DNA of 64,000 nucleotides from an uncultured Veillonellaceae bacterium (GCA_964638945.1 CAZXCC010000001.1:47945-111944); one strand, 5' to 3'. Counted from the first letter of the stretch, positions 514-33,593 are shown. Notes: generated by a model from the letters alone, not told the origin. Made by a program: numbers and translations.

Positions 514-2076
514 ATGTGGGGAGAGAATTCTCGGCAAAGGATGGGTGAAATGATTAGTCTGGATGGAAATTCGCTAACGATCGACGAAGTGATCCGCGTT
601 GCCCGGAAATATGAAAAAGTTGCGATTGGTGAAGCTGGCTGCAGGCAAGTTGCAGTGAGCAGAGCCGTGGTCGAAAAACTGCTGGAGTCTGAGCAGCCGA
701 TTTATGGTATATCCACAGGATTTGGAAATCTCAGCACCATCTGGATATCACCGGCGGAAAGGGAAAAACTGCAACGGAATCTGATATTGAGCCATGCCGC
801 CGGCGTTGGGGAATGCCTGCCGGAGGATGTTGTGCGCGCGGCCATGCTAATGAGGGCCAATTCTTTGGCAAAAGGGTATTCCGGAATCCGGCCGGAAACT
901 TTGGAAATGCTGATTGCCCTGCTGAACCACAGGGTGTATCCGGCGGTGCCGTCCAAGGGCTCTGTCGGCGCAAGCGGCGATTTGTCGCCATTATCCCATG
1001 TTGCTCTCGTTTTGATGGGGGAAGGGAAAGCGTTTGTTGAAGGGAAAATCGTGCCGGGCAGGGAGGCTTTGGCCAGTGCCGGATTGCAGCCGATAGCTCT
1101 TGGAGGGAAAGAAGGACTGGCATTGATTAACGGAACGCAGATCATGACAGCCATTGGTGCGCTTGTCTGGTACGATGCTGCGAACCTGATGAAGGCCGCC
1201 GATATTGCGGCAGCCATGTCGCTGGAAGCGCTGCGGGGTACCCGGACCGCTTTTGACGAGCGTATCAGCCGGATACGTCCGCATCCGGGGCAGTTGGCAA
1301 CTTGCAGAAACATGCTGCGACTGACTGCGAATAGCAACATAATGGCATCGCACGAGCATTGCGGAAAAGTACAGGATGCCTATTCGCTGCGTTGCATTCC
1401 TCAGGTTCACGGTGCGTCAAAGGATGCGTTGCAGCGGACTTTGGACACGTTGAATATTGAAATGAATTCAGCAACGGATAATCCTTTGATTTTGCCGGAA
1501 ACAGGCGAAGTGATTTCCGGTGGCAATTTTCACGGACAGCCGGTGGCATTGGTCATGGACCATATGAAAATCGCTGTTGCAGAAATCGGCAGCATTGCCG
1601 AACGTCGCATCAACCGGATGCTTGATGCCCATCTCAGCGATTTGCCGCCATTTCTGACAGCATATCCAGGAGTTGACTCCGGACTGATGATTACGCAATA
1701 TACGGCTGCGGCCCTGGTGTCGGAAAACAAAGTGCTGGCTCATCCGGCTTGTGTGGACTCGATTCCAACCTCGGCGAATCAGGAAGACCATGTCAGTATG
1801 GGTACGATTGCTGCCAGACAGGCAAGGGAAATCCTCGAAAATGTAAGATATGTTGTGGCGATTGAAATGCTGGTTGCAGCCCAGGGGCTGGATTTTCTGC
1901 GGCCGCTTGAGCCGGGAGTCGGAGTTTGTGCGGCGTATCAGACGATCCGGCGGGAGATTCCGCATCTGGAAGAAGACCGGGTACCGGCAGAAGATATTGC
2001 GATTGTATATAAAATGTTGGTTGAAGGGGACATCGTGGAGGCTGCTGAGCGTGCGACAGGCGAGCTGAATGCCTGA
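514..2076 (+). CDS. histidine ammonia-lyase family enzyme (MIO-dependent aromatic amino acid ammonia-lyase); true start likely ATG near 541-550
   Basis: Ala-Ser-Gly MIO-forming triad in GASGDLSPLSHVAL; about 510 aa typical of HAL/PAL; no hutU/hutI nearby, so the substrate is uncertain. Confidence 0.8.
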   Translation: MWGENSRQRMGEMISLDGNSLTIDEVIRVARKYEKVAIGEAGCRQVAVSRAVVEKLLESEQPIYGISTGFGNLSTIWISPAEREKLQRNLILSHAAGVGECLPEDVVRAAMLMRANSLAKGYSGIRPETLEMLIALLNHRVYPAVPSKGSVGASGDLSPLSHVALVLMGEGKAFVEGKIVPGREALASAGLQPIALGGKEGLALINGTQIMTAIGALVWYDAANLMKAADIAAAMSLEALRGTRTAFDERISRIRPHPGQLATCRNMLRLTANSNIMASHEHCGKVQDAYSLRCIPQVHGASKDALQRTLDTLNIEMNSATDNPLILPETGEVISGGNFHGQPVALVMDHMKIAVAEIGSIAERRINRMLDAHLSDLPPFLTAYPGVDSGLMITQYTAAALVSENKVLAHPACVDSIPTSANQEDHVSMGTIAARQAREILENVRYVVAIEMLVAAQGLDFLRPLEPGVGVCAAYQTIRREIPHLEEDRVPAEDIAIVYKMLVEGDIVEAAERATGELNA

Positions 2077-2126: not shown

Positions 2127-3725
2127 GTGGCTGATTTTCTGGAAACCCTGATCGAAGCGCTGCCTTTTATCGCACGCATTACAGGCGGATATGCGACAGT
2201 GACGGACAGGGACGGTGTCCGCATACGGACGTATGATTCCGAGGGGCAGGAAATAGTGGAGTGGCGGGGAACGGTCTTTGAGCTGGCGAGGGAAGTTGGT
2301 CAGAACGGCCAGGTCCGGATCGGGCCTTCCCAGATCATTGCCGATGCCGAGGCTTGGGCATTGCCGCTGGGTGAATATGTGATCGCCTCCAGCAATCTGG
2401 AAAGAGTGATGAGGGAGAAGGAGCTGCTTGAATCCTTGAAGTCGGCACTACCTTTTATTGCAAGGGTTGCCGGGGGGGAAGCCGTACTGTTCGACGAGGA
2501 AGGAAAACGCACTGCCAGTGTCGGATATGATGGGCAACCCAATACAAACTTTATCGGGCGAGTCAGTAAAGCTGCTCAAAAAGCCATGAAAACGGGTCGC
2601 CCGGTGATTGGGGAATCCATGTCGGCAAATGGTGCAATTGGTGTGAGGATTCCCATCACTCATAGTTTTGGTCTGGGGTTCAATAATGAGCATGGCGTGA
2701 TGCGGCAGCAGAAATTGATGGAGGAAGTAAAAAAATTTCAGTACGCACGCTATAATTTCACAGACATTGTCGGGAACAGCGAAGCGATTCAAAAAGTGAA
2801 AAGCATGGCCAGTTTTGTAGCAAATGGCATATCATCGATATTGATTCTGGGAGAAACCGGAACAGGAAAAGAGATGTTTGCCCAGTCCATCCATAATTGT
2901 AGCGAACGGCGCAGTAAACCTTTTATTGCGGTCAACTGCGGAGCTTTGCCGGCATCGATAATCGAAAGTTATCTGTTCGGTTATGTTGAGGGAGCGTTTA
3001 CGGGAGCCAAAAAGAGCGGCAGTCCGGGCGCTTTTGAGCAGGCAAACGGCGGAACCATTTTTCTCGACGAGCTTGGGGAAATGGATTTCAATTTACAGAG
3101 CAAATTGCTTAGAGTGCTGCAAGAACGGGAAGTAACGAGGATTGGCGGTTCAAAGCCGCTGCACATCGATGTACGGGTTATCGCTTCAACAAACCGTGAT
3201 TTGAGTGAAATGGTTACGGCGAACAAATTTCGCCAGGATCTATATTACAGGCTCAATGTTGTACAGCTGAAAATCCCGCCTCTGCGGGAACGGACCGAAG
3301 ATATTCCGGCTCTGGTCAAGGGAATGATTGACCGATTTAACAATATGCTTGGCAAATTTGTCGTGGGGATATCCGAAGAATGTATCGCCAAACTTTGTGA
3401 ACACAAATGGCCGGGCAATGTGCGGGAATTGCAGAATTGCGTCGAATATGCCATGAACATTATCGGCATCAATGATAGTGTTATCGAAGTGGAGCATTTG
3501 CCGCATAATATACAAAGTATCGTTCAAAACGGCAAAATTCAGACTGTCGGTACGTTGGCGGAAACGGTATTGCTGGCGGAAAAAGAGGCCATCCTAAAAG
3601 CGCTGGCATTCACCGGCCATGCGAAAAAGGAGACGGCCAGGCTCCTTGGCATCAGTACGACCACGCTATGGCGCAAAATGATTGAAACCGGCATTGAAAA
3701 TGCGCCTCCGCTTCCGGAAAAATGA
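2127..3725 (+). CDS. sigma-54-dependent transcriptional activator (NtrC-family EBP); N-terminus is two tandem copies of an uncharacterised roughly 95-aa sensory domain, then AAA+ sigma-54 interaction domain and C-terminal Fis-type HTH
   Basis: GETGTGKE Walker A, GAFTGA sigma-54 contact motif, C-terminal HTH; internal repeat ALPFIARITGG.. / ALPFIARVAGG..; GTG start with GAGGTG RBS. Confidence 0.85.
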   Translation: MADFLETLIEALPFIARITGGYATVTDRDGVRIRTYDSEGQEIVEWRGTVFELAREVGQNGQVRIGPSQIIADAEAWALPLGEYVIASSNLERVMREKELLESLKSALPFIARVAGGEAVLFDEEGKRTASVGYDGQPNTNFIGRVSKAAQKAMKTGRPVIGESMSANGAIGVRIPITHSFGLGFNNEHGVMRQQKLMEEVKKFQYARYNFTDIVGNSEAIQKVKSMASFVANGISSILILGETGTGKEMFAQSIHNCSERRSKPFIAVNCGALPASIIESYLFGYVEGAFTGAKKSGSPGAFEQANGGTIFLDELGEMDFNLQSKLLRVLQEREVTRIGGSKPLHIDVRVIASTNRDLSEMVTANKFRQDLYYRLNVVQLKIPPLRERTEDIPALVKGMIDRFNNMLGKFVVGISEECIAKLCEHKWPGNVRELQNCVEYAMNIIGINDSVIEVEHLPHNIQSIVQNGKIQTVGTLAETVLLAEKEAILKALAFTGHAKKETARLLGISTTTLWRKMIETGIENAPPLPEK

Positions 3726-3771: not shown

Positions 3772-4440
3772 GTGAAAGACAACAAGACTTCCCAATCAGC
3801 GGTGCTTTATGATGCCAATGTTCATAAAACAATTCCGCGGTACCATACTTTCCATGATGAGACGATTGAACTGATCCGAATTTTGAGACCGGCTCCGGCG
3901 GCATGGCTGGATACCGGCTGCGGTACAGGAACACTCATCGCAAAAGCAGCAGGTTGCTTTCCTGGAGTGAAATTTGTCGCAGCGGATCCGTCATCGGCGA
4001 TGCTGGAGCAGGCCAGGGAAAAGTTGGCCGGATTGGCGGTGGAATATGTGGAGGCCGGCACCGAGGCGTTTGCCGTGAAGAACAGATTTGATGTCATTAC
4101 TGCAATAATGTCGCACCACTACTTGAATTTCCCAGAGAGGGATACGGCAACGAAAAATTGCTTTGATGCACTGAACGAGGGGGGAGTGTATGTCACATTT
4201 GAAACCATACGGCCTTTTTCGGAACGCGGTACTGAAGTAGGGCTGCAAAGGTGGCGTACACATCAACTGTCAAACGGCAAAGCGCCTGAAGAAGTCGATA
4301 AGCATATCAGCCGTTATGGTATGGAATTATTGCCGATCTCGATTGATAATCATCTCGAATTGCTTCGCCGGGCAGGTTTTTCCACTGTGGAAATCTTGTG
4401 GGTATCTGGTTTACAGGCAGGGTTCTACGCTGTCAAATAG
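3772..4440 (+). CDS. class I SAM-dependent methyltransferase
   Basis: motif I LDTGCGTGTL; 222 aa. Confidence 0.7.
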   Translation: MKDNKTSQSAVLYDANVHKTIPRYHTFHDETIELIRILRPAPAAWLDTGCGTGTLIAKAAGCFPGVKFVAADPSSAMLEQAREKLAGLAVEYVEAGTEAFAVKNRFDVITAIMSHHYLNFPERDTATKNCFDALNEGGVYVTFETIRPFSERGTEVGLQRWRTHQLSNGKAPEEVDKHISRYGMELLPISIDNHLELLRRAGFSTVEILWVSGLQAGFYAVK

Positions 4441-4459
4441 CCGGAACGTGAGCGTGCTA

Positions 4460-4490
4460 TTGACAAAAAGACGGTACTCGTGATAATGTT
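4460..4490 (+). promoter_or_regulatory. possible sigma-A promoter (TTGACA, 16-17 nt, GATAAT with TG extension) followed by a GC hairpin at about 4510-4545
   Basis: pattern reading only. Confidence 0.3.
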
Positions 4491-4595
4491 CGAAATTATA
4501 ACAGTGGCAATGGAGCCGCCGCAAATGCGGTGGCTTTTGCTTTTTATTTTGCGAACCGATGGCGAAAATGTGCTGAGGGGAATTGTCTGATGCAT

Positions 4596-4611
4596 CGGCA
4601 CGATTCTTGCA
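4596..4611 (+). promoter_or_regulatory. sigma-54 (-24/-12) promoter CGGCACG-ATTC-TTGCA upstream of the soluble MCP-like gene
   Basis: GG at 4597-4598 and GC at 4609-4610 with canonical spacing; matches TGGCACG-N4-TTGCW except the first base. Confidence 0.6.
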
Positions 4612-4707
4612 ATAAATCTTGCTGAAACAAAATTTTGTAAAACGGCTACCGGAGATGGAGGCGATCTCCAATCTGGATTTTTTGAAAACAGGGGGGAAGT
4701 TGATACA

Positions 4708-5547
4708 ATGGCAACGTCGGAAGAAATTCTGGAAAGGTTGGTCCATGCACTACCGCTTATTCAGGGGGCTTTGCACGAAGATACAGGGGTTACTTTGACG
4801 AACCGGGAAAATTTTTTGTTCTACAAAGCAGGAAAAAATTTGGACCTAAAGGTTCCGCCCAATGCACAGGTAAAGCCGGGCAGCGGAGTGCACAGGGCCA
4901 TGCAGGAACGACGGCGCGTGGCGCTGCGCTTTGACAGCACGTTATATGGATTGCCTTACACATCTGTAGCGATTCCGGTTTATGATGAATCGCATGAAGT
5001 GATCGGAGCCATTGCCATTACTCAACCTGTGGAACTGCAGGAAAGCATCAAGCGGATGTCCGGCGGATTGTTGGACAATATCAGCGCTTTGGCTGCTACG
5101 AGCGAAGAGATTTCCGCCCAGACGGAAGAGATTGCGGCGTCCAGCCGTGTATTGACGGATATGGCGCATGAGTCACAAAAAAGAGCACAACAAACCGACC
5201 AAGTGTTGGGGTTGATTCGGAACATTGCCAGTCAGACAAATCTTTTGGGTTTGAATGCTGCTATTGAGGCAGCCCGTGTCGGGGAGCAAGGCCGCGGATT
5301 CGGCGTTGTTGCGGAGGAAATAAGAAAATTGGCTGGAACCAGCGCCCAGTCAATCAGCGAAGTGACTTCAATTATTGCAGCGATTCGTAAAGACAGCGAG
5401 GCCACTTACAGCCAGATGAATGAAATGCAGAGTGCAATCGGACAAATTGCCACTGCCGTTAGCCAAATTGCTGAAACAGTGCAAAAAATAACACAAAATG
5501 CATCGCAACTGGATAAGATTGCGGAAGCAATGAATGGGCAAGAATAG
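4708..5547 (+). CDS. soluble methyl-accepting chemotaxis protein-like transducer (no TM, no HAMP), N-terminal uncharacterised sensory domain shared with the sigma-54 activator; YfmS-like architecture
   Basis: MCP signalling core [34 protein letters not shown]; N-terminal about 110 aa alignable to 2127..3725 repeats and to 54187..55032. Confidence 0.8.
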
Positions 5548-5772
5548 TATTATTTCAAAAATGAAATGCGAAGGAATATTTTAAAGGAAATAAAGAATGC
5601 AAAAATAAGCTTTGGTTGATTCTTTTTCTGCAAAACTCGAGAATGAAGATTTGCTGCTGCAAATATGTGAGGGGCAAAAAGCAGGAATAATGCAGGTAGT
5701 GATGAAGAAGACCATTGTGATTATTGCTGTGTTTCTCTTTCCTCAGGGATAAATTCGGTGCGTTGCAATAAT

Positions 5773-5786
5773 GAAATGCGCATTTC
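5773..5786. promoter_or_regulatory. perfect 14-bp palindrome GAAATGCGCATTTC about 160 bp upstream of the sigma-54 promoter; candidate enhancer (UAS) for the sigma-54 activator; a half-site-like TGAAATGCGAAGG lies at about 5560
   Basis: read directly; position typical for EBP binding sites. Confidence 0.4.
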
Positions 5787-5933
5787 TGTTTTGAAATGAA
5801 AATGATAAGTTGACCGCTGAAAATTGATGAAAAAATAAGTGGAATTCCAACCTTGCAATACAATCATACGGCGGACGAATGGCAATGAAGCCTGGCAAGA
5901 GATCTTGCGGGCTTTTTTGTTTGGAAGGCATAT

Positions 5934-5949
5934 TGGCACGGCTCTTGCA
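5934..5949 (+). promoter_or_regulatory. sigma-54 promoter TGGCACG-GCTC-TTGCA, near-perfect consensus, immediately upstream of the RBS/start of the first nicotinate cluster gene
   Basis: GG 5935-5936, GC 5947-5948; exact match to TGGCACG-N4-TTGCW. Confidence 0.75.
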
Positions 5950-5976
5950 TTGGTCTATAAAACGGAGGTGTGCACG

Positions 5977-6450
5977 TTGAATGTTGAAATAACTTGTAGG
6001 ATTAATGGCAAAGAAATTAACATGACGGTTCGGCCTGAAATGCTGTTGGTGGATTTCCTGCGTGATGAACTTGGTTTGACAGGAACGAAGAGAGGCTGCG
6101 GGATCGGTGAATGTGGCGCTTGCACGGTCATAATGGATGGACGCACAGTGGCATCTTGTATTGTTCCTGCCGCTTCGATCGACGGTTCGGATATTTTAAC
6201 GGTGGAAGGGCTGTCTGACGGAGAAAAACTCCATGTCCTTCAGCAGGCTTTCATCGACCATGGCGCAGTACAGTGCGGTTTTTGCACACCTGGGATGCTC
6301 TTGTCGGCAAAGGCTTTATTGGACAAAAATCCAAAACCGACACGGGAAGAGATCCGAGTGGCCATCTCTGGCAATGCATGCCGCTGTACAGGCTATACCA
6401 AAATTGTTGATGCGGTAGAATCAGTGGCAAAACTGGGAGGTGACGTTTGA
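5977..6450 (+). CDS. ndhS: nicotinate dehydrogenase (xanthine dehydrogenase family) 2Fe-2S small subunit
   Basis: two 2Fe-2S motifs CGIGECGAC and CGFCTPG; TTG start 8 nt after GGAGGTG; the ATG at 5839 would include the sigma-54 promoter and is judged less likely. Confidence 0.75.
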   Translation: MNVEITCRINGKEINMTVRPEMLLVDFLRDELGLTGTKRGCGIGECGACTVIMDGRTVASCIVPAASIDGSDILTVEGLSDGEKLHVLQQAFIDHGAVQCGFCTPGMLLSAKALLDKNPKPTREEIRVAISGNACRCTGYTKIVDAVESVAKLGGDV

Positions 6451-7721
6451 TGAACAATGCCGGCATTGGCAGTTCGGTTTTGAAGTCGGATGCGCTTGCC
6501 AAGGTGACGGGGCAGGCGTTATTCGCTGCTGACATGAAACGTCCGGGCATGTTGTTTTGCAAAGTGGTTCGCAACGAAAGCAAAATCGCGCATGCCGTGA
6601 TCGAAGGGATAGATGTGGCGGAAGCAGCGGCAACTCCTGGGGTTGTGGCAGTTTTTACGGCAAAAGACATTCCTGGAACGAACGGCGTCGGCATCATCCT
6701 GAAGGATGAACCGGTGCTCGCGGGGGAAAAAGTCCGTCGCCATGGCGACGCATTGGCTCTTGTCGTGGCTGAAACAGAAGAGATAGCAATTGCAGCAGGC
6801 AAGAAGGTTCGTGCCACATTGAAAGAACTGCCGGCGTATTTTGATCCCATAGCTGCGATGGCTCCTGACGCAGTCAAGATTCACGGATCATCCAATGTGC
6901 TGACCCTGCGCAAGGTTCGCAAGGGGGATGTAGAGGCGGCTTTTGCTGCTTCAAAGGTGATCATTGAAAGACGGTACACTACGCAGACGATTGAGCATGC
7001 CTATATAGAACCGGAAGCGGGATTGGCCGAATACGACGGCAGAATGGTGACGGTTTGGGTTTCAACGCAGAACGCACATTTTGACCGCAAAGAAGTGGCT
7101 CGCAACCTGGGGCTGGGAGTACATCAGGTTCGAATCGTTCAGGCTGTCACCGGCGGCGGGTTTGGCGGCAAACTTGATATTTCGGTGCAATGTTATCTGG
7201 CCCTGGCAGCTTACAAAACCGGGCGCCCGGTGAAAATGGTCTGGCAACGGGAAGAATCCATGATTGCATCAGCCAAGCGGCATCCGTACCTGATCGATTA
7301 CAAGACAGGCGCCGATGCGGACGGCAGGTTGCTGGCCGTGAAAGCAAATATCATTGGCGACTCAGGTGCCTACGCGTCTTATGGGCCGGCTGTGCTGACA
7401 AGGGCCGCGGTTCATGCTACCGGTCCCTATGAAGTGCCCAATGTCCATGTGGACGCATATGCCGTATACACAAATAACCCCCAGGCCGGAGCCATGCGTG
7501 GCTTTGGCGTGCCGCAGATGGCTTTTGCGCATGAGACGCAGATGGATCTTCTGGCGGAAGAACTGGGCCTCTCCCCCTTCGAAGTTCGCAGGAGGAATGT
7601 ATTGCGTCCGGGGGGGACGACTGCGACGGGCCAAGTGCTGGAACATAGTGTGGGCATCGGAATGACGCTGGAACAAGCCTGTAAGGAAGCAGAAAAATTG
7701 TTCCGCACGGGGGTACTGTAA
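6450..7721 (+). CDS. ndhL: nicotinate dehydrogenase molybdopterin subunit, N-terminal half (NdhL-like)
   Basis: aldehyde oxidase/xanthine dehydrogenase a/b hammerhead region; ATGA overlap with ndhS stop. Confidence 0.75.
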   Translation: MNNAGIGSSVLKSDALAKVTGQALFAADMKRPGMLFCKVVRNESKIAHAVIEGIDVAEAAATPGVVAVFTAKDIPGTNGVGIILKDEPVLAGEKVRRHGDALALVVAETEEIAIAAGKKVRATLKELPAYFDPIAAMAPDAVKIHGSSNVLTLRKVRKGDVEAAFAASKVIIERRYTTQTIEHAYIEPEAGLAEYDGRMVTVWVSTQNAHFDRKEVARNLGLGVHQVRIVQAVTGGGFGGKLDISVQCYLALAAYKTGRPVKMVWQREESMIASAKRHPYLIDYKTGADADGRLLAVKANIIGDSGAYASYGPAVLTRAAVHATGPYEVPNVHVDAYAVYTNNPQAGAMRGFGVPQMAFAHETQMDLLAEELGLSPFEVRRRNVLRPGGTTATGQVLEHSVGIGMTLEQACKEAEKLFRTGVL

Positions 7722-8774
7722 ATGAAGAAACGTGGTACAGGAATCGGTTGCATGTGGTATGGCATCGGCAATACGGGGCTTCCCAATCCGGCAGCGGCGT
7801 TTGTCGAATGGCTGGATGACGGGACGGCCAATTTGCTCGTCGGATGCGCGGATATAGGACAGGGATCGGATACCGCACTTGCCCAGATTGTGGCGGAAGA
7901 GCTCGGCATCAGTGCTGAAAACGTCATGGTCACCTCGGCTGACACGATGGTCACCCCTGAAGGCGGCGCTACAAGCGCCAGCCGACAGACTTACATTTCC
8001 GGCAACGCAGCACGCCTGGCGGCCAAGGAAGCCAAGCAGGTGGCGATTGCGGAAGCGAAAGAGATGTTGAAAACAACCGGCAATGTTGATTTTTCCCGTG
8101 GGTTCGTCTTGGTAGACGGAAAACCGGGAGAGCTTTCTGTGAAAGAAGTATTGGGCAGCTGTCGCATGAAGGGAAAACTCACGCTGGGACACGGGTGGTT
8201 CAATCCGGCGACAACAGGACTGGATACTGCCACGGGTGTAGGTTCGCCTTACGGAACATACGCTTTTGCCACGCAGGTGGCTGAAGTGGAAGTGGATACG
8301 GAAACCGGAAAAGTCGAAGTTCTTCGCCTCGTAGCTTCCCATGACGTTGGAAAGGCCATCAATCCCCAACTGGTCCAGGCGCAGATCGAGGGTGGCAGTG
8401 TCATGGGGGTCGGCTATGCCTTACTTGAGGAGATTAACGTTTCTGGCGGCCGCATTACAAATCCCAACTTTGATGCGTATCTTTTGCCCACTGCACTGGA
8501 TACGCCTGAGATTTATTCGTTTATCGTCGAAGATCACGAACCCACCGGCCCTTTCGGGGCGAAAGGCGTCGGGGAACCTGCTCTGATTCCAACTGCGGCG
8601 GCGATTGCCAATGCCGTGTACGACGCAATCGGTGTCAGAATCTATTCCCTGCCGATTTCTCCGGAACGGGTGCTCCAGGCGCTGGCAGAGAAAAAGAATG
8701 AGCAAAAGCCTGGCAACTGCAGTGGACCGGTATATGCGATTTGTTCAATCGGTGTGGAAGAAAGCAAGCCCTAA
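7722..8774 (+). CDS. ndhM: nicotinate dehydrogenase molybdopterin subunit, C-terminal half (NdhM-like)
   Basis: xanthine dehydrogenase family Mo-binding C-terminal region; clean TAA-ATG junction with GGGGGT RBS, mirroring the split 50+37 kDa L/M subunits of the E. barkeri enzyme. Confidence 0.75.
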   Translation: MKKRGTGIGCMWYGIGNTGLPNPAAAFVEWLDDGTANLLVGCADIGQGSDTALAQIVAEELGISAENVMVTSADTMVTPEGGATSASRQTYISGNAARLAAKEAKQVAIAEAKEMLKTTGNVDFSRGFVLVDGKPGELSVKEVLGSCRMKGKLTLGHGWFNPATTGLDTATGVGSPYGTYAFATQVAEVEVDTETGKVEVLRLVASHDVGKAINPQLVQAQIEGGSVMGVGYALLEEINVSGGRITNPNFDAYLLPTALDTPEIYSFIVEDHEPTGPFGAKGVGEPALIPTAAAIANAVYDAIGVRIYSLPISPERVLQALAEKKNEQKPGNCSGPVYAICSIGVEESKP

Positions 8775-8822
8775 TATCCGGGAGGCAGATTCCCGGCAAT
8801 CATGATAAGGAGAGTGACACAA

Positions 8823-9995
8823 ATGGCAAACCTAGTAATTACCAACATCGGCACAATTGTTTCAGGGGACATCGATTCTCCGATTCTCCAGGGTAACACC
8901 ATCGTTATCAAAGACGGAAAAATTGATGCCGTGGGAAATGCGGAACTGGTAGACGCTCTCAAAAAAGAATCGGTCGAATTCAAAACCATTGACGCAGGTG
9001 GTATGACAGTGACCCCGGGTCTGATTGATTCGCATGTTCATCCGGTCATCGGCGACTATACACCGAGGCAAAAGATGTCGGATTTTATCGACAGTTCCAT
9101 TCATGGAGGCGTGACTTCGATGATCTCCGCAGGGGAATGTCATACGCCGGGCCGTCCGACGGATCCGGCCGGTGTAAAAGCTCTGGCCATTCTGGCGAAA
9201 AAATCATTCGCAAATCTTAAGCCGGGCGGTGTGAAAGTTCATGCCGGCTCCGTGATTCTTGAAAAAGGGCTGACGGAAGCTGATTTTGCTGAGATGGCGG
9301 CAGCGGGTGTCAATATCGTCGGCGAGGTGGGCCTGGGTTCGGTAAAGAAGCCTGAAGATGCTGCGCCCATGGTGGCCTGGGCCAAGAAGCACAATATGAA
9401 AGTCATGATGCACACGGGCGGCACTTCGATTCCAGGTAGCTCCACAGTATCTGCAGATGACGTGATCAAAACGGACCCGGACGTAGTATCTCACATCAAT
9501 GGCGGCCCTACGGCGGTTTCATTGAAAGAGGTCGACAGGTTGCTTGACGAGACGCAGTTTGCATTGGAGATCGTACAGTGCGGCAACCCGAAAGTGGCTG
9601 ACTATGTGGCGCGCAAAGCGGCTGCCAAGAACCAGATGCATCGGATTATTTTCGGCAACGATGCTCCTTCCGGCACCGGCGTGATTCCTCTGGGGATTCT
9701 TCGAAACATCTGCCAGATTGCCAGCATATCTGAGATTCCTGCAGAAAAAGCCATTGCGATGGCTTCGGGAAACACTGCCCGTACTTATGGATTGAACACC
9801 GGAGTGATTGCGCCGGGAAAAGACGCGGATCTTGTGATTTTGGACACACCGATGGGCTCGGTCGGCAAGAATGCGCTGGAAGCGATTGAAGCCGGAGATT
9901 TGCCTGGAGTCGCGTTGGTACTTGTTGATGGAGTGATCAAGGTAAACAAGAGCCGCAATACTCCGCCGACAGTGGGAAAAGTAACGGGTGCCTAA
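8823..9995 (+). CDS. ena: enamidase-like amidohydrolase (1,4,5,6-tetrahydro-6-oxonicotinate amidohydrolase)
   Basis: amidohydrolase metal motif GLIDSHVHP; 390 aa, matching the about 386-aa E. barkeri enamidase; cluster context. Confidence 0.7.
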   Translation: MANLVITNIGTIVSGDIDSPILQGNTIVIKDGKIDAVGNAELVDALKKESVEFKTIDAGGMTVTPGLIDSHVHPVIGDYTPRQKMSDFIDSSIHGGVTSMISAGECHTPGRPTDPAGVKALAILAKKSFANLKPGGVKVHAGSVILEKGLTEADFAEMAAAGVNIVGEVGLGSVKKPEDAAPMVAWAKKHNMKVMMHTGGTSIPGSSTVSADDVIKTDPDVVSHINGGPTAVSLKEVDRLLDETQFALEIVQCGNPKVADYVARKAAAKNQMHRIIFGNDAPSGTGVIPLGILRNICQIASISEIPAEKAIAMASGNTARTYGLNTGVIAPGKDADLVILDTPMGSVGKNALEAIEAGDLPGVALVLVDGVIKVNKSRNTPPTVGKVTGA

Positions 9996-10016
9996 GGAAA
10001 CGGGAGGTTTGGAACA

Positions 10017-11525
10017 ATGATCATTGTCAAGAAGGAACTCTGCAAGGCCTGCGGCTTATGTGTCAAGAACTGTCCGGCAAGCGCGGTCAAAGTCATAGAC
10101 AAATTGGCCGTGGTGCAGGAGAATTGCGTCAGTTGCGGCGTCTGCGTCCGTGTCTGCCCTTTTCAGGCAATCATGCGCGAAGTGGAAATTGCTGCAGGCG
10201 CAGTTTCTTGCCGTTCATGCCCGGTCCAATGCGAAATCAAGGCAGGGTTTGAAGGTGCATGCAAACGCTATAGCAACATCAACGGAAAATTGGTGCGAAA
10301 CCGTGAACTGGTACTGGAAAATACCCGGTCTCAGGTGCCGGACCGGACAATCCCGGATAAGCCTCTGATTACTGCCGTAGGTGCGGGTACAGAGTATCCC
10401 TGCTGCCGTCCGGCCCCTCATATTGTCGGTGAGACGATCGACGGCATCGATGTGGTGACCGTAGTGACGGAAGCTCCGCTCAGTTACAGCGGTATCAAGG
10501 TAAAGATTGACGCCAACCGCCACATCGGCGAAGAAGGCGCGAAGATATTCAGGGACGGTGCGCTCGTCGGCATGGTGGACACCGAAGAGTATGGATCAAA
10601 GATGATTTACATCGGCGGAGCGAATATTCTGAGCGGGAAGAATGGATTTGCCGCGGCCCGGACCATTGTCGAACTGGCGAATGAAGAACGAGTGACACTG
10701 CAGGTCGAAAAAGGAAGCAAGCTGGAACTGCAGGTCGGTCACGCACCAATCATTGACGGTGTTGCCGAAAAGAAAATGCGTGTTGGTTGCGGCAGTGCAA
10801 CCGTCGGTATGTTTGCACGTATCATGAGTCAGGCAGTGGATGAAGCCATCGTGCTGGACCATCATGTTATTGGACTTCTGTCGGAACACCGGGCGGGTGA
10901 AGAGGTTGGAATGCGCTGGAGCGGCGTTGTTCCAAACGGCAGAAAAAGTACAAGGGGTAGATATTTCGGGGAGCATGGGCATGGTTGGGGCGGCACTCAT
11001 ATCGAAAAGCCTCTGGATGCAGTCAAGTCTGTAGATATGAGCATCGCCAGACAGGGCATGAAAATATTGGTTACCGAAACTACCGGGCAAAAAGGCGCAT
11101 TGCTGGAAGTGCAAGCGGATGGCAGTGTGCGCGAGATTCCGATGACTCCGGATGCTCAGGCCGCTGTCAACATGATTGTCGACAATTGTGAGGAAGCCAG
11201 GGTATCTGCCGTTTATGTCGGCGGAACCGGCGGCAGTGCGAGAGCAGGCGTGACGACCTATCCCATCAAGCTTTCACGCGCCGTGCATGCAGGGGAAGCA
11301 AAGTTGACAATCGGCGGGGCCATGGCCTACATCCTTCCGGGAGGCGGCATAAATTTTCTGGTGGATGTGGAAAAAGTGGAACCGAAGGCTTTTACCTGGG
11401 TTCCGACTCCTGCAACAGTAGCGCCGGTTGAATATACGATGACCCGCCGCAAATATGAAGAAATCGGTGGACATGTCGAGTCCATCAAACCCCTCTCCAC
11501 GCTCAAAAAGGCGAACAAAAAATGA
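10017..11525 (+). CDS. hnr: 6-hydroxynicotinate reductase-like protein with N-terminal 2x[4Fe-4S] ferredoxin domain
   Basis: CKACGLCVKNCP and CVSCGVCVRVCP motifs plus additional Cys clusters; position and size consistent with Hnr of the E. barkeri pathway. Confidence 0.6.
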   Translation: MIIVKKELCKACGLCVKNCPASAVKVIDKLAVVQENCVSCGVCVRVCPFQAIMREVEIAAGAVSCRSCPVQCEIKAGFEGACKRYSNINGKLVRNRELVLENTRSQVPDRTIPDKPLITAVGAGTEYPCCRPAPHIVGETIDGIDVVTVVTEAPLSYSGIKVKIDANRHIGEEGAKIFRDGALVGMVDTEEYGSKMIYIGGANILSGKNGFAAARTIVELANEERVTLQVEKGSKLELQVGHAPIIDGVAEKKMRVGCGSATVGMFARIMSQAVDEAIVLDHHVIGLLSEHRAGEEVGMRWSGVVPNGRKSTRGRYFGEHGHGWGGTHIEKPLDAVKSVDMSIARQGMKILVTETTGQKGALLEVQADGSVREIPMTPDAQAAVNMIVDNCEEARVSAVYVGGTGGSARAGVTTYPIKLSRAVHAGEAKLTIGGAMAYILPGGGINFLVDVEKVEPKAFTWVPTPATVAPVEYTMTRRKYEEIGGHVESIKPLSTLKKANKK

Positions 11526-12355
11526 TCAGGGAATTGGGGCCGGGCAAGGTTGCGCTTGATTTTGGTCCTACCCAGATGAATATTCATGTTTCCGGCGACA
11601 ATGCCGGTACCGGCATTGCGAAAGAAGCAGCGGATTACGCAATAAAGCTGGTTACGGAACTGGCGGGTTTTAAAACGATTGCAGCCAGGCCGCAAAGCGA
11701 AATCGGCACGCTGGAGGATCTGCCTGTCGTGCTCCAGAGAATGATCGAGTCTGTCAGAAAAACCGGGGATACGGATCTGACCCCCATGGCTGCAGTTGCC
11801 GGAACTCTATCGGACATGACTGCAGACTGGCTTTTTGCCAGAGGCGTCTCGAAGGTTATCGTCAACAATGGCGGCGATATTGCGATAAGACTCTCGGGAG
11901 AACAACGAGCCACGGTTGGCATTGCACCGGCCTTGGGCATGCCGCCGACCCACGTTCTGCATATCGGTGCAGCCGATGGCATCGGCGGTGTGACAACAAG
12001 CGGTTCAGGCGGACGAAGTTTCACCAAAGGAATTGCCACCGCCGCCACCGTTGCGGCAAAAACGGCGTCGATAGCCGACGCCTGCGCCACAAGCATCGGC
12101 AACGCAACCTTTTCTCCCCATCCATCCATCCGCATGGCTAGAGCGGAAGAAATCGATCCATTGACTGACATCGCAGGGCACTGGGTGGTTCGGGACGTGG
12201 GAGAACTGCCGCAGGAAACGGTTCAGGCAGCTCTTGAAAACGGATGGATGAGGGCAAAAAGCTATTTGGACAGAGGGATCATCAAAGGATGCGTTATCTT
12301 TATCGGACAAGCTGGAGTGGTGCTGCCGGAAGGGCTAGTGACTCCCTTGCCGTAA
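11522..12355 (+). CDS. conserved hypothetical protein, Gly/Ala-rich, in nicotinate cluster (possible Hnr accessory)
   Basis: ORF 277 aa translationally coupled (ATGA) to hnr; no motif recognised. Confidence 0.45.
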   Translation: MIRELGPGKVALDFGPTQMNIHVSGDNAGTGIAKEAADYAIKLVTELAGFKTIAARPQSEIGTLEDLPVVLQRMIESVRKTGDTDLTPMAAVAGTLSDMTADWLFARGVSKVIVNNGGDIAIRLSGEQRATVGIAPALGMPPTHVLHIGAADGIGGVTTSGSGGRSFTKGIATAATVAAKTASIADACATSIGNATFSPHPSIRMARAEEIDPLTDIAGHWVVRDVGELPQETVQAALENGWMRAKSYLDRGIIKGCVIFIGQAGVVLPEGLVTPLP

Positions 12356-12376
12356 AAATTAAGAGGAGGGTATATT

Positions 12377-12961
12377 ATGGAACTGGAAATTCGTAAGATT
12401 GTAACTGTTGTGGAAGAAACCTGCAAGGAAGCCGGACGCAAACTGGAAAAACCGACGCGCAAAGCTGCGGCGATGGCTGTTGTTGCCAATCCGTATGCGG
12501 GGCAATATGTGGAAGACCTGAATCCGCTGATTGATGCCTGCCTGCCGCTCGGAGAGCTCTTGACCAAACGTGCAGTGGAAGCATTGGGCATTGCGCCTGA
12601 AAAAGTAGAAAGCTATGGCAAGGCGGCTATCGTAGGCATAAATGGCGAACTGGAGCATGCCGCGGCGCTGCTGCATCCCAAACTCGGGACACCGATCCGC
12701 GATAATGTCGGCGGAGGAAAGGCAATTCTGCCTTCAACCAAAAAAGTCGGTGGACCAGGAACGGCGATCGATGTATCACTCGGATTCAAAAACGCCGCAT
12801 ACGTGCGGACTCACTTCGATGCAATGGAAGTACGGATTGCCGATGCTCCACGGGACAATGAAATTGTCCTTATCGTTGCTGTGACTGATTCGGGCCGTCC
12901 GCTGGCGCGTGTGGGCGGATTGACTGTGGATCAGGTCAAAGGCGAAGACGGATTGCGCTAA
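12377..12961 (+). CDS. amino-acid-synthesis (AA_synth/DUF1185) family protein, function unknown
   Basis: N-terminal MELEIRKIVTVVEE... and length about 190 aa typical of that family (from memory). Confidence 0.5.
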   Translation: MELEIRKIVTVVEETCKEAGRKLEKPTRKAAAMAVVANPYAGQYVEDLNPLIDACLPLGELLTKRAVEALGIAPEKVESYGKAAIVGINGELEHAAALLHPKLGTPIRDNVGGGKAILPSTKKVGGPGTAIDVSLGFKNAAYVRTHFDAMEVRIADAPRDNEIVLIVAVTDSGRPLARVGGLTVDQVKGEDGLR

Positions 12962-12974
12962 ACAAAAAATATAG

Positions 12975-13007
12975 TTGCTAGAACAAGGAAATTCCTTGTT
13001 CTAGCAA
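12975..13007. other. perfect 15-bp stem / 3-nt loop hairpin (TTGCTAGAACAAGGA aat TCCTTGTTCTAGCAA) between cluster genes; U-run lies on the minus-strand side
   Basis: base pairing verified by eye, 15/15 pairs. Confidence 0.6.
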
Positions 13008-13024
13008 AATTGGGGGGAAGAAAG

Positions 13025-13912
13025 GTGCGTATCGGATTTATCGGTATCGGAGCCATGGGAAAACCGATGGCGCTGAACCTTCTAAAGGCTGGCCATGAAC
13101 TGTATGTTTTTGATGTCGTGGCAGCTGCGGTGGCAGACATGGTTGCTCAGGGGGGGCAGGCATGCACGTCGCCCAAAGAGCTTGCGCAGAAGACGGAAGC
13201 AGTTATTACAATGCTGCCCAATGCCAAGATTGTGGAAAGTACACTGACAGGTGAAAACGGGCTTTTAGCCGGCTCACGTCCCGGACAGGTTTTCATCGAC
13301 ATGAGCAGTGTCTCCGCTGGCAGTACGAAACTGATGGCCAAACTCGCCGGTGAAAAAGGGGTCGGCTATGTGGATGCACCGGTAAGCGGCGGGGTGGCTG
13401 GCGCTACGGCTGGAACACTGACCATCATGGTTGGGGGAAGTGTGGATGACGTTGCGAAAGTACAACCCATACTGCAGGCTATGGGGAAAAACATCCACCA
13501 TGTCGGAGAAGTGGGTGCGGGTGATTCCATCAAGGTCGTCAACAATCTGCTGCTCGGGATCAATATGGCAGCGGTTGCTGAAGCGTTGGTGCTCGGAGTG
13601 AAATCCGGCCTGTCGCCCCAGGTCATGCTTGATATCATCAAGGGGAGCTCCGGCCGAAGTTATGCGTTGGAGGCGAAGACTCCGGGCTTTATCCTGAAAA
13701 ATAATTTTGCAGCCGGATTTGCCATCGACCTGCAGTACAAGGATCTGGAACTGGCGGCCGAAACGGCAAAAAGTCTGGGAATGCCGCTTCCGCTGGGATC
13801 CATGGCGCAACAGATTTTTGAAATGGCCAGGGCCAAGGGACTGGGGCGCGAGGATATTTCAGCAGTGATCAAGGTGTGGGAAGAACTGGTCGGCGTGCAA
13901 GTGAGGGAATAG
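13025..13912 (+). CDS. hgd: 2-(hydroxymethyl)glutarate dehydrogenase-like (3-hydroxyisobutyrate dehydrogenase family, NAD-binding)
   Basis: GFIGIGAMGKPMALNL Rossmann motif; about 296 aa; cluster context. Confidence 0.75.
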   Translation: MRIGFIGIGAMGKPMALNLLKAGHELYVFDVVAAAVADMVAQGGQACTSPKELAQKTEAVITMLPNAKIVESTLTGENGLLAGSRPGQVFIDMSSVSAGSTKLMAKLAGEKGVGYVDAPVSGGVAGATAGTLTIMVGGSVDDVAKVQPILQAMGKNIHHVGEVGAGDSIKVVNNLLLGINMAAVAEALVLGVKSGLSPQVMLDIIKGSSGRSYALEAKTPGFILKNNFAAGFAIDLQYKDLELAAETAKSLGMPLPLGSMAQQIFEMARAKGLGREDISAVIKVWEELVGVQVRE

Positions 13913-13919
13913 AAGGTAG

Positions 13920-15344
13920 GTGCAGGGGATGGAGAAGATATATAAGGAATTAAAAGAAAAGAATTTGTTGCCGGGCCAGCTGACTATCGGTGACTGTATT
14001 GGTGTGGCCAAAACAGTCGGAACGAGTGTTGGTGAAGTGATCATTGCCGAAGCGATGGAAGTCGGCAAAATGACCCGGCAGGAAGTGCTGTCGGCCGTGA
14101 TGGCAAGTTTTTCTCACAATCTGTATGCGATAGAAATCGGTACAACAACTGGTTCCAGCTTTCTGATGGGCAACGCGGGGCGGGAACTGACACAGGGAGC
14201 TGCCCCGCAGATTGTGGAAGATACTTTCCTGAACAAGGTGCTGGGATTTACGATTGGGGCACAGGTGGGAAACCATTCGGTCGGTTTGCAGCCTTGCGCC
14301 GGAACTGGCGATTCCTGTACGTATTCGGGTTTTGTCAAAGCCATGTTGGAAGAGGTGGCCGATCAGGAGCTGATTGCCCGTGTTGCGGCTGTCATGCTGA
14401 AAATCGGTACGATATTTCGCGTGGGTAAAACATCAACCGGCTGTAATATGGAAGGATTTGGTGCAGGTTCCGCTGCTTCTGCGGCAGCGTTCATCGAACT
14501 AGCCGGCGGTACACCGGAACAGATGGAGAAGGCCATTGTCCTGGCCTTGTCACCAACGATCGCGGTTCCTTGTACCCCCAGGGTCATGGTGGCCGGAATT
14601 TGCGCCACGCATATCGGCGGTGGCGTAATGATCGGCAAACTGGCGGCGCAGCTTGCGATGCATACCTCCATCCCCATCACCGTTCCTGCAGATGTGATGA
14701 TCGCCATGGCGGCAGCCGTTCATCCGATATCCGCCAAACATGTGGTTCCCACAGTGATTCAGTACATGGAGCCTTTTTTCAAAACCAACCTGGCGGTAGA
14801 AGGCTATATTTCTCCGGAAATAAAGGCGGAGGAAAAGGAGCGGATCGATCAGACTATTGGTCATGCTCTTGCTGAAGCCCGAGAACTGGCCCGCAAATCC
14901 AACCCGATCGTCAAACCGTTCAGTGAGGCGGTTGTAGGCGGAAGCAGCCAAGCTGTCGGTTCCCCGACGAACGCGGCCCGGATTGCGCATTTCCTTGCCA
15001 AAGGCGAAGTGAAGAAAGTCAAAATCGAGCTGTATCCCGAATTATTTGCCAGACGCGGCATCAATGTGCCGGGCATCCTGATGGCGGCAATTTACGGCGC
15101 AGGGACGGATAACAGCAAACTGTATCGTGAAGTCATGGACAAAGTGAAGGCTGCGGGAATCGAAGTGGAAATCCTGCAGGCCAGCGAATCTCAGATGCAG
15201 CGGATTACCGTCGAAGCCAGTGAAAAGAACGGGATGGTGCAGACTCTCAATCGTGGCGGAGCCCGCCTGGTTCTGCAAAAAGCATCCGATTTGGCAGAAG
15301 CATTCCGGATTGCCAAGGACCTTGGCATTGAAACGGTCGAGTAG
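13920..15344 (+). CDS. hmd: 2-(hydroxymethyl)glutarate dehydratase-like (Fe-S L-serine dehydratase family, fused beta+alpha)
   Basis: serine dehydratase-like single-chain architecture 474 aa; cluster context. Confidence 0.7.
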   Translation: MQGMEKIYKELKEKNLLPGQLTIGDCIGVAKTVGTSVGEVIIAEAMEVGKMTRQEVLSAVMASFSHNLYAIEIGTTTGSSFLMGNAGRELTQGAAPQIVEDTFLNKVLGFTIGAQVGNHSVGLQPCAGTGDSCTYSGFVKAMLEEVADQELIARVAAVMLKIGTIFRVGKTSTGCNMEGFGAGSAASAAAFIELAGGTPEQMEKAIVLALSPTIAVPCTPRVMVAGICATHIGGGVMIGKLAAQLAMHTSIPITVPADVMIAMAAAVHPISAKHVVPTVIQYMEPFFKTNLAVEGYISPEIKAEEKERIDQTIGHALAEARELARKSNPIVKPFSEAVVGGSSQAVGSPTNAARIAHFLAKGEVKKVKIELYPELFARRGINVPGILMAAIYGAGTDNSKLYREVMDKVKAAGIEVEILQASESQMQRITVEASEKNGMVQTLNRGGARLVLQKASDLAEAFRIAKDLGIETVE

Positions 15345-15355
15345 GAGGAACGGTC

Positions 15356-16564
15356 GTGAATTTTATAGAAAAATATCTGGCTGCTGCGGCCGGTCTTGAA
15401 AAGGTAAGTGTAGGGCAAGATTTGCGCTGCCGGGTGGATCTGGCACTCAGCCATGACGTTACTGCGCCGATAGCCATTCAACAATTCGAACAGATTGGCA
15501 TCGACCATGTGTTTGATCCAGCCAAAGTGGTCCTGGTCATCGACCACATCTTTCCCGCATCGACCGTCCAGGCCCGGACTTCACATTGGATCATGAAAGA
15601 TTTTGCAGCAAAATTCGGTGTCACACTGTATAGCAAAGGGGAAGGCGTCTGCCACCAGCTCCTGTCGGAGCGGCATCGTTTGCAACCGGGGCAGATTCTG
15701 GTGGGGGCAGACTCACACACTTGTACAGCCGGCGGTTACGGCGTGATCGGAATCCCTGTCGGATCGACGGAACTGGCTGCTGCGATGGCGACCGGTACAA
15801 TCGACCTGGAAGTTCCACCTGTGGTCGAAGTCTTCATGACTGGCGCCCTGAATCCCGGCGTAAGCGGCAAGGACATCGTTCTGAGCCTGATCAAGCGTTT
15901 CGGCGTCGATGGGCTTACAGACAAGGCGGTTGTTTTTACTGGCCCGGGAATTACAGGAATTTCTACAGGGGAACGGATGACGATCTGTAATATGGGAATC
16001 GAGATGGGCGCAATGATTGCCTGCTTTGGAGAGGAAACCAAAGCGGAGGATGTTGCGGAAAGCATTCCGCTGGAGCTGGAAAAACTGGTTCCGCTTGCGG
16101 CCTGTCCGCATTCACCAGCCAATGTTCGCCCGGTTTCCGACCTGAAGGACGTATCGGTAACCCAGGTGGTGGTCGGCAGTTGTACGAACGGGAGACTGAA
16201 CGACATGGAAAAAGTAGTCGATGTGCTCAGAAACCATAAAGTTCATCCCGATGTAAACTGTCTGATAATCCCCGCATCGAAAAACATACTGGATGCGATG
16301 GAAGAACAAGGCTGGTGCAAAATTTTGCGCGATGCCGGCGCTGTGGTGGCAAATCCCGGTTGTGGCCCGTGTTTTGGCGCTCATCAGGGATTGGGCACGG
16401 AACGCGACGTGATCGTATCCACCACGAATCGTAATTTCCCAGGACGAATGGGGCACCGGACCGCGAATATCTATCTTGCTTCACCCGCTACGGCAGCTGC
16501 ATCGGCGGTGACCGGGAAAATTACCGAACCAGGTTCGCTGGCAGCCGGAGGTGATTTGAAATGA
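15356..16564 (+). CDS. dmdA: dimethylmaleate hydratase large subunit (aconitase/LeuC family)
   Basis: GADSHTCTAGG aconitase-family motif; GTG start after GGAGG. Confidence 0.75.
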   Translation: MNFIEKYLAAAAGLEKVSVGQDLRCRVDLALSHDVTAPIAIQQFEQIGIDHVFDPAKVVLVIDHIFPASTVQARTSHWIMKDFAAKFGVTLYSKGEGVCHQLLSERHRLQPGQILVGADSHTCTAGGYGVIGIPVGSTELAAAMATGTIDLEVPPVVEVFMTGALNPGVSGKDIVLSLIKRFGVDGLTDKAVVFTGPGITGISTGERMTICNMGIEMGAMIACFGEETKAEDVAESIPLELEKLVPLAACPHSPANVRPVSDLKDVSVTQVVVGSCTNGRLNDMEKVVDVLRNHKVHPDVNCLIIPASKNILDAMEEQGWCKILRDAGAVVANPGCGPCFGAHQGLGTERDVIVSTTNRNFPGRMGHRTANIYLASPATAAASAVTGKITEPGSLAAGGDLK

Positions 16565-17055: not shown

Positions 17056-17080
17056 ACGATATACTGCAGGAGGAACCAAA

Positions 17081-20061: not shown

Positions 20062-20083
20062 TTCATACGGGGAGTGAAAAGAC

Positions 20084-21520: not shown

Positions 21521-21521
21521 C

Positions 21522-22394: not shown

Positions 22395-22413
22395 CCCTGG
22401 AAGGAGGCTGCAT

Positions 22414-32062: not shown

Positions 32063-32110
32063 CAAAAAAAGAGGCTGTGAAAAAACAAAAACCCATCATG
32101 GATTAATGCG

Positions 32111-32148
32111 AAAACCGGCGCCGTTATAGGCTGAAGCCGGTTTTTTCA
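32111..32148 (+). terminator. rho-independent terminator after the PAS sigma-54 activator gene
   Basis: AAACCGGC...GCCGGTTTTTTCATTT. Confidence 0.65.
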
Positions 32149-32154
32149 TTTGTT

Positions 32155-33592: not shown

Positions 33593-33593
33593 T

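Follow-up and report, generated by a model that had tools for sequence, protein, structure and literature searches.

A conserved sigma-54-type promoter and an inverted-repeat enhancer predicted to control a nicotinate fermentation operon in an uncultured Veillonellaceae bacterium

How the operon that begins with ndhS is switched on is the question raised by a 64,000-nucleotide stretch of DNA from an uncultured Veillonellaceae bacterium (GCA_964638945.1 CAZXCC010000001.1:47945-111944, one strand; this whole stretch is called the window below). The control gap that precedes ndhS, at 5548-5976, is 429 bp long, and the gene of a sigma-54 enhancer-binding protein (EBP) is situated 2.2 kb upstream of the promoter candidate found in it. 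An earlier note on this DNA had placed a sigma-54 promoter and a palindromic enhancer in the gap. Comparison with related loci makes it very probable that the operon, predicted to serve nicotinate fermentation, is controlled from this gap by a sigma-54 promoter and an EBP-bound enhancer, and the predicted EBP site is an 18-bp inverted repeat, CATTTC-N6-GAAATG. Neither the promoter nor the palindrome is compelling on sequence statistics alone; the case rests on context and comparison. The elements, their conservation, their exclusive position and the functions of the genes were computed. The features on which the answer depends are given below.

2127-3725, plus strand: gene of a sigma-54 EBP of 532 aa (Pfam, orthologue alignment)
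5551-5568, no strand assigned: predicted upstream activating sequence (UAS) S1, TATTTCaaaaatGAAATG, composed of TATTTC aaaaat GAAATG, with one core mismatch (motif comparison and position weight matrix, PWM)
5761-5778, no strand assigned: predicted UAS S2, CGTTGCaataatGAAATG, composed of CGTTGC aataat GAAATG, with two core mismatches (motif comparison and PWM)
5773-5786, no strand assigned: perfect 14-bp palindrome GAAATGCGCATTTC, in which the right arm of S2 is joined through CG to the left arm of S3
5781-5798, no strand assigned: predicted UAS S3, CATTTCtgttttGAAATG, composed of CATTTC tgtttt GAAATG, with a perfect core (motif comparison and PWM)
5886-5923, plus strand: hairpin and T-run resembling an intrinsic terminator (terminator scan, folding)
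5934-5949, plus strand: predicted sigma-54 promoter TGGCACGGCTCTTGCA (TGGCACG-GCTC-TTGCA; consensus match, conserved in orthologous loci)
5960-5976, plus strand: inferred transcript start at about 5960 and 17-nt leader with the ribosome-binding site (RBS) GGAGG at 5964-5968 (-24/-12 numbering only)
5977-23295, plus strand: operon ndhS, ndhL, ndhM, ena, hnr, apbE-like, AA_synth, hgd, hmd, dmdA, dmdB, mgm, mii, mutL-like, dml, ndhF (Pfam, PDB, tblastn)

The promoter candidate TGGCACGGCTCTTGCA has its GG at 5935-5936 and its GC at 5947-5948, with 10 bp between the doublets. It is placed on the coding strand and precedes the TTG with which ndhS starts (5977) by 43 bp and GGAGG by 15 bp. The earlier note had described it as an exact match to the RpoN consensus, and both its coordinates and the zero mismatches were confirmed. 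The further claim that the transcript would begin just before the GGAGG agrees with the geometry, which places the start at about 5960 by -24/-12 numbering only. TGGCAC-N5-TTGCW with zero mismatches is found once across the window, at this position. The number expected by shuffling is 0.11, with at least one match in 11 of 100 shuffles; hence the exact match is by itself mildly unusual, and its significance comes from context and comparison. A promoter scan of the gap found no sigma-70-like promoter. An Rfam search of 4300-6200 at a permissive E-value presented no riboswitch or leader, the sole match being SNORD78, below threshold with an E-value of 0.26, which is attributed to chance.

Thirteen distinct informative loci were retrieved by searching with the EBP, from Sporomusa malonica, a Sporomusa metagenome-assembled genome (MAG), Bacillota MAGs, Anaeroselena agilis (Acetonemataceae, Negativicutes), a Peptococcaceae MAG, a Desulfosporosinus-type contig and metagenome contigs. 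EBP identity across the loci ranges from 54 to 85%, and the closest relatives are loci L016 (85%) and L017 (A. agilis, 77%). Two gene orders exist. Most lineages present the EBP gene, the gap, ndhF, ndhS and ndhL(M); in the window, L016 and L017, the EBP gene is followed by a methyltransferase gene, a gene for a methyl-accepting chemotaxis protein (MCP)-type signalling protein, the gap, and then ndhS, ndhL and ndhM. At each locus that shows the target, a -24/-12 element comes after the EBP gene, either directly or past the methyltransferase and MCP genes.

At all 13 related loci, next to an orthologous EBP in each case, this element stands 41-82 bp ahead of the first ndh gene; the distance to the start codon is 41-45 bp in the window, L016 and L017, and 50-82 bp in the loci where ndhF comes first. 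Examples of the orthologous elements are TGGCATGATAATTGCA and TGGCACGACTTTTGCA, and L017 carries a weaker version, TGGTACAGTTCGTGCT. Because the -24/-12 element is conserved at orthologous loci, the prediction of a sigma-54 promoter for the ndh operon is well supported.

Upstream of the promoter, comparison of the loci points to the 18-bp inverted repeat CATTTC-N6-GAAATG as the operator unit and predicted EBP site. The fuller motif is cATTTCa-N4-TGAAATG, in which position 7 is mostly A and position 12 is always T. The spacing of the two arms is constant in all 28 tabulated sites. In the window, the site centres are 146 bp (S3), 166 bp (S2) and 376 bp (S1) upstream of the GG of the -24 element. 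S2 and S3 abut, with centres 20 bp apart, and S1 starts 4 bp past the stop of the MCP gene and is also found in L016 and L017, as GATTTCaaaaatGAAATG. Pairs of sites 19-20 bp apart recur (window, L017, L018 and L019), a spacing that fits two EBP dimers side by side. The enhancer had been placed at a typical UAS distance of about 160 bp, and the predicted enhancer is indeed about 150 bp upstream; in Clostridiales sigma-54 regulons, most UAS sites are 100-250 bp upstream (Nie et al. 2019, PMC6615313). A half-site had also been pointed out at about 5560. The sequence TGAAATGCG does recur there, at 5562-5570, as the right arm of the complete site S1 and not as a half-site; two copies of this 9-mer are a chance-level count (1.67 expected).

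Loci L001-L013 were used to define the motif. Across 220 kb of sequence covering 13 loci, 20 sites are at most one mismatch from CATTTC-N6-GAAATG, all 20 within the 4.2 kb immediately upstream of the predicted sigma-54 promoters, and each of the 13 upstream regions holds at least one. The earlier note would have been contradicted by a lack of the element at orthologous promoters; for the shared core, no such lack was seen. First-order Markov resampling of the AT-rich upstream regions was used as background, and yielded a mean of 0.033 sites with a maximum of 2 in 2000 runs. Six loci added later served as an independent test; they presented 10 more sites, all in the target intergenic regions and none in the remainder of their 68 kb. 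When a PWM from which all sites of the window, L016 and L017 had been left out was applied to the window, its three best 18-mers were S3 (23.8 bits), S1 (23.5 bits) and S2 (21.9 bits), with the next at 10.3 bits. The strong site closest to the promoter usually has its centre 113-167 bp from the -24 element; the distance is 243 bp in L016 and 333 bp in L018. A strict helical phasing of the sites against the promoter was considered and rejected, being not conserved across loci. In L013, three tandem 74-bp units at 2230-2440 contain one site each, 128-275 bp upstream of a sigma-54 promoter, which indicates an enhancer built by tandem duplication.

The adjacent sensor EBP had been named as the activator, and this is supported as likely. 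The protein comprises a tandem PAS-like sensor (residues 1-205), an AAA+ domain with GAFTGA (214-381) and a helix-turn-helix (HTH) of the Fis type (484-518). Its Pfam matches, Sigma54_activat AAA+, the lid domain and HTH_8, have E-values of 1.7e-69, 6.9e-23 and 1.5e-9. GAFTGA, Walker A and Walker B are intact and invariant in the orthologue alignment, and the family shares a conserved recognition helix, ISTTTLWRK. EBP, motif and promoter occur together in 13 of 13 loci, covering two gene orders and several families.

The sensor consists of two tandem helix-plus-five-strand modules in an AlphaFold model of residues 1-213 (pLDDT 90.8). Foldseek related it to tandem PAS, GAF-PAS and dCache folds (MmoS, FixL, DhaR-N, Tlp3) with a probability of about 1, at a TM of only 0.25-0.30 and a sequence identity of 7-18%. 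Searches with its sequence in Pfam, NCBIfam and PDB returned nothing significant. No NCBIfam EBP equivalog (PrdR, NifA, PrpR, NorR, AtoC and others) reached its cutoff among the 25 models listed of 31 matched. The best was PrdR, with 375.6 bits against a cutoff of 795, and the listed models cover only residues 193-520, approximately. Judging from the regulon, the sensor presumably responds to nicotinate or to an early intermediate (for example 6-hydroxynicotinate). A homology between the MCP N-terminus and the EBP sensor was discarded as unsupported (BLASTP E-value of 0.04 over 14 residues).

Two further observations concern the surroundings of EBP genes. An aromatic amino acid/histidine ammonia-lyase gene is present directly upstream of the EBP gene in the window (514-2076) and in L016 (3441-4967), and is not found there in A. 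agilis or the other loci. In addition, the window has a second EBP (PAS, AAA+ and HTH_8) at 30575-32062, followed by an apparent hairpin and T-run at about 32120-32150 (identified by eye), the sequence TTGGCATGGTTTGTGCA (32154-32170) and an RBS. Behind TTGGCATGGTTTGTGCA comes an operon encoding oxidoreductase, 4Fe-4S, DAO and aldehyde dehydrogenase proteins (region 30575-37076). This layout appears to repeat the order of terminator, sigma-54 promoter and RBS seen before ndhS.

The target operon spans 17 kb with short intergenic gaps, and ndhS, its first gene, encodes a 2Fe-2S subunit. The best PDB match of NdhL is 3HRD_A, the nicotinate dehydrogenase of Eubacterium barkeri, with an E-value of 9e-125 against 8e-65 for the next match; NdhS matches 3HRD_D, and Ena, an amidohydrolase, matches the enamidase 2VUN (6e-169). 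Homologues of Ndh S/L/M/F, Hnr, Ena, Hgd, Hmd, Mgm, Mii, DmdAB and Dml are found together, as in an E. barkeri-type cluster. The assignment to E. barkeri-type nicotinate (vitamin B3) fermentation is thereby confirmed as a prediction from domains and best PDB matches. An MFS transporter gene at 23448-24806 follows and may be a member of the operon. The ndhF gene of the window (22339-23295, found by tblastn) closes the cluster and does not precede ndhS; it is only 36-39% identical to the ndhF of the ndhF-first loci, with about 57-64% for NdhS, NdhL and NdhM. The gene may have been relocated or replaced in the lineage of the window.

The hairpin at 5886-5923 (-19.5 kcal/mol, z of -3.8) separates S3 from the promoter, whose -24 element follows after 11 bp. 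A stable GC-rich hairpin with a T-run directly after it, it is predicted to be a rho-independent terminator. Its counterparts fold in L016 (-19.9 kcal/mol) and L017 (-12.5 kcal/mol), each followed by TTTGTTTG, and its position is conserved; no two-sided compensatory change was seen among these three sequences. The hairpin probably marks the end of the MCP transcript and keeps read-through away from the ndh promoter. Its position would be no obstacle to activation, because activation works by DNA looping. The sequence TGGCAAGAGATCTTGC (5893-5908) was considered as an overlapping second -24/-12 element and rejected: its GG and GC are one base too far apart here and two bases in L016, and it coincides with the hairpin stem.

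The mechanism proposed from these elements is as follows. RNA polymerase with sigma-54 would be held on TGGCACGGCTCTTGCA as a closed complex, and dimers of the EBP encoded nearby would bind S1, S2 and S3 via the Fis-type HTH. A ligand sensed by the tandem PAS-like N-terminal domain would lead to assembly of the AAA+ ring, which would reach the promoter via DNA looping and use ATP for its opening, with transcription proceeding from about 5960, just before the ndhS RBS. The hairpin and T-run at 5886-5923 would halt transcripts from the upstream MCP gene. The binding protein, the ligand, the start site and the dependence on sigma-54 are what we infer in this scheme.

Several points weigh against this reading. 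The leader it implies for ndhS is short, with 17 nt. No rpoN gene is located in the window, and its presence is implied only by the two EBP genes. The distance and helical phase of the sites relative to the promoter are not strictly conserved between loci, and the motif is AT-rich in AT-rich DNA, which was controlled by a first-order model only. The ligand is a guess from operon content. Finally, in the ndhF-first loci the repeat comes directly after the EBP stop, with symmetric arms of 12-18 bp that differ by locus and a U-rich run, so that the repeat could there be mainly or additionally a terminator of the EBP gene.

This last point bears on the least improbable rival, according to which the inverted repeats are RNA hairpins or intrinsic terminators, for instance of the EBP gene, and not protein-binding enhancers. 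The arms do reach 12-18 bp in L001, L002, L003, L009, L011, L013 (site 1) and L019, and folding at these loci, L019 excepted, gave energies from -14 to -26 kcal/mol (z from -4 to -9). Although they vary by locus, the outer arms remain complementary, a U-rich run is present, and the repeats are within about 100 bp of the EBP stop. However, the core of 6+6 bp is invariant in sequence, which a terminator does not need, and in 18 of 28 sites, S1, S2 and S3 among them, the 6-bp core is extended by fewer than six symmetric arm pairs. Three short-arm examples were folded; with -3 to -7 kcal/mol they are weak, do not differ significantly from shuffles and have no U-tract. S3 as RNA, for example, would form a 6-bp hairpin only (-6.5 kcal/mol, z of -0.5), has no U-tract, and is unlike a terminator. 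Moreover, sites come in arrays (the 74-bp tandem repeats of L013 and the pairs 19-20 bp apart), and are also found before mttB promoters, far from any gene end. We therefore consider this explanation unlikely. The likeliest arrangement, given these comparisons, would be a core that is bound by protein at all sites and that, in the ndhF-first loci only, after the EBP gene, has a terminator role as well.

The second rival is the one favoured by the earlier note, that is, that the 14-bp palindrome GAAATG-CG-CATTTC is itself the operator of one EBP dimer, with TGAAATGCG-like half-sites elsewhere. The palindrome is at 5773-5786 as described, perfect and unique in the window (versions with up to three mismatches are at chance level, 7 against 7.5 expected), and a 10-12-bp palindrome, (G/A)AAATGCATTTC, occupies the equivalent place in L003, L001 and L009. 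Its role as operator did not hold. GAAATG and CATTTC adjoin without a gap (0 nt) in L003, L001 and L009, whereas 1 nt separates them in L016 and L017, 2 nt do so in the window and 3 nt in L013; L011 and L002 lack the left GAAATG and have AAAAAT and AAAGAG, respectively. By contrast, the spacing within CATTTC-N6-GAAATG is the same at every site. In the closest relatives, the junction between S2 and S3 is 1 nt, one base shorter than in the window, and both 18-bp units are kept; the counterparts of the palindrome, GAAATTGCGTTTC in L016 and GAAATGTCATTTC in L017, are non-palindromic. A 14-bp palindrome with fixed half-site spacing is thus not what the orthologous promoters share: the shared core is present in 13 of 13 intergenic regions, and the palindrome itself is not conserved. 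Because a dimer could not tolerate a varying GAAATG-CATTTC gap, the 18-mer, not the 14-mer, is taken as the operator unit, and the palindrome as the abutment of S2 and S3. A palindromic operator is accordingly judged quite improbable.

Least of all do we expect that the sites are bound by another regulator (a repressor or global factor) while the EBP acts elsewhere or from solution, or that the -24/-12 element is fortuitous and a sigma-70 promoter is used: one sigma-54-type promoter, at 4596, apparently works without its own site and an exact consensus arises by chance in 11% of shuffles, but EBP, motif and promoter co-occur at every locus, the gap yielded no sigma-70-like promoter, and the terminator-like hairpin, placed 11 bp ahead of the -24 element, speaks against expression by read-through.

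With the sigma-54 promoter and the EBP-bound 18-bp sites retained as the preferred explanation, the region between the EBP gene and the control gap contains the following features.

3772-4440: methyltransferase gene, between the EBP and MCP genes
4512-4537, plus strand: hairpin and T-run after the methyltransferase gene, containing CAAATGCGG (terminator scan, folding)
4596-4611, plus strand: second sigma-54-type promoter, CGGCACGATTCTTGCA, ahead of the soluble MCP gene, with no UAS of its own
4708-5547: gene of a soluble MCP-signalling protein, between the EBP gene and ndhS

The promoter at 4596 is conserved in L016 (8230) and L017 (7403). No UAS was found for it within about 900 bp upstream, where the best PWM score is 8 bits, against 20-23 for S1-S3. 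The sole sites in the window are S1-S3, about 1 kb downstream of this promoter. The earlier note had pointed to CAAATGCGG, upstream of the 4596 promoter, as a related site, which proved mistaken: near 4520, CAAATGCGG is the loop and 3' stem of the terminator-like hairpin at 4512-4537 (-23.7 kcal/mol, z of -3.6). The stem of this hairpin is conserved in L016 and L017, and its loop varies (AAAT, TATG, ATAA). About 25 bp before it, at 4460-4487, is a near-consensus sigma-70-like promoter, TTGACA-16-GATAAT (11 of 12 positions), whose ATTGACA is kept in L016 and L017; its product would be a very short RNA, or nothing. The idea that the gaps 4441-4707 and 5548-5976 are copies of one module was dropped, blastn returning short matches only, with E-values of 0.14 or more.

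A second soluble MCP-signalling protein, of 281 aa and 50% identical to the product of 4708-5547, is encoded at 54187-55032 on the minus strand, behind a sigma-54-type promoter, TGGCATAGTTTTTGCT, at 55102-55117 on the same strand. No CATTTC-N6-GAAATG was found near that promoter (55117, minus strand). Small cytoplasmic MCP-like proteins thus appear, from their promoters, to be a sigma-54-controlled class in this organism.

Sites of the same type were also observed outside the ndh context. In L023 (5146-9852) and in L020 (6612-10433, Dehalobacterium formicoaceticum), a related EBP is accompanied by such a site and by a sigma-54 promoter before genes for an MttB-family methyltransferase and an SSF transporter; in L023, these genes are followed directly by another site, a promoter and ndhF. 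As a guess from gene order only, this layout suggests demethylation of a quaternary amine, for example N-methylnicotinate (trigonelline), feeding the nicotinate pathway.

A wider interpretation is tentative, and we regard it as possible though rather doubtful: the EBP family would be an undescribed nicotinate-responsive sigma-54 activator, widespread in Negativicutes and in Peptococcaceae-/Desulfitobacterium-type Bacillota, whose enhancer does several jobs. Under this interpretation, the palindrome of the ndhF-first loci would double as the terminator of the activator gene, and the enhancer in the lineage of the window may serve both the ndh promoter and the MCP promoter about 1 kb upstream. 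Some regulons could include the MttB-family methyltransferase and the transporter, feeding N-methylnicotinate (trigonelline) in. If one enhancer does serve two promoters, nicotinate catabolism would be coupled to chemotaxis.

A survey of Clostridiales covered 39 EBP groups, none of which includes nicotinate or ndh genes (PMC6615313). Sigma-54 and nicotinate fermentation were not connected in any paper returned by a full-text search, which did not extend to the original description of the E. barkeri cluster. Likewise, no description of the regulation of anaerobic nicotinate fermentation was found in the full-text search and the Clostridiales survey, again without the original E. barkeri paper. 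The proposed model (activator family, 18-bp site and -24/-12 promoter) is transferable across genomes. It can be used for annotating nicotinate degradation regulons in Negativicutes and related anaerobes, and provides exact fragments and point mutations for binding assays. Because the mechanism is textbook sigma-54 activation, the gain is in annotation and experimental design, and no new principle is involved.

In comparison with the nicotinate fermentation gene cluster of E. barkeri, reportedly described by Alhapel et al. in PNAS in 2006 (cited via PMC5746545), the operon of the window has the same enzymes, including the split NdhL/NdhM, NdhS, NdhF, Ena, Hnr, Hgd, Hmd, Mgm, Mii, DmdAB and Dml. 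It differs in that ndhF is at the end and that the methyltransferase and soluble MCP genes are between the regulator and ndhS.

Known regulators of nicotinate catabolism are of other kinds. NicR and NicS of Pseudomonas putida are MarR/TetR repressors of this pathway that respond to nicotinate or a derivative, and HxnR is a Cys2His2 zinc-finger activator. To our knowledge, none of the three is sigma-54-dependent. HxnR regulates the nicotinate catabolic cluster of Aspergillus nidulans (PMC5746545). Unlike these regulators, whose protein classes are unrelated to it and which work at sigma-70 or eukaryotic promoters, the EBP proposed here would act through sigma-54.

A closer parallel is NtrC at glnAp2, whose enhancer motif is TGCACC-N5-GGTGCA. 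The ndh region resembles it in having two adjacent sites on roughly one helical face plus a distant one, and an activator gene that adjoins its target. The two differ in the ndh motif, CATTTC-N6-GAAATG, and in the EBP, which has a tandem PAS-like sensor and not a receiver domain. The ndh gap also has a terminator-like hairpin between enhancer and promoter, unlike glnAp2, and an IHF-type site was not identified there. Also shared are a -24/-12 promoter and inverted repeats for a Fis-type HTH about 100-170 bp upstream, which are general features of bacterial EBPs (PMC6615313).

With respect to the Clostridiales regulons, many EBP groups recognize motifs of the form TGT-N10-12-ACA, unlike the ndh motif (PMC6615313). 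The overall plan is nevertheless alike: as with PrdR and the proline reductase, a fermentative or catabolic operon is preceded by a sigma-54 promoter and, mostly, by multiple UAS sites (PMC6615313). The N-terminal sensor of the ndh EBP is unrelated to that of PrdR, and the likeness between the two proteins, PrdR being the best NCBIfam match, is confined to the AAA+/HTH part.

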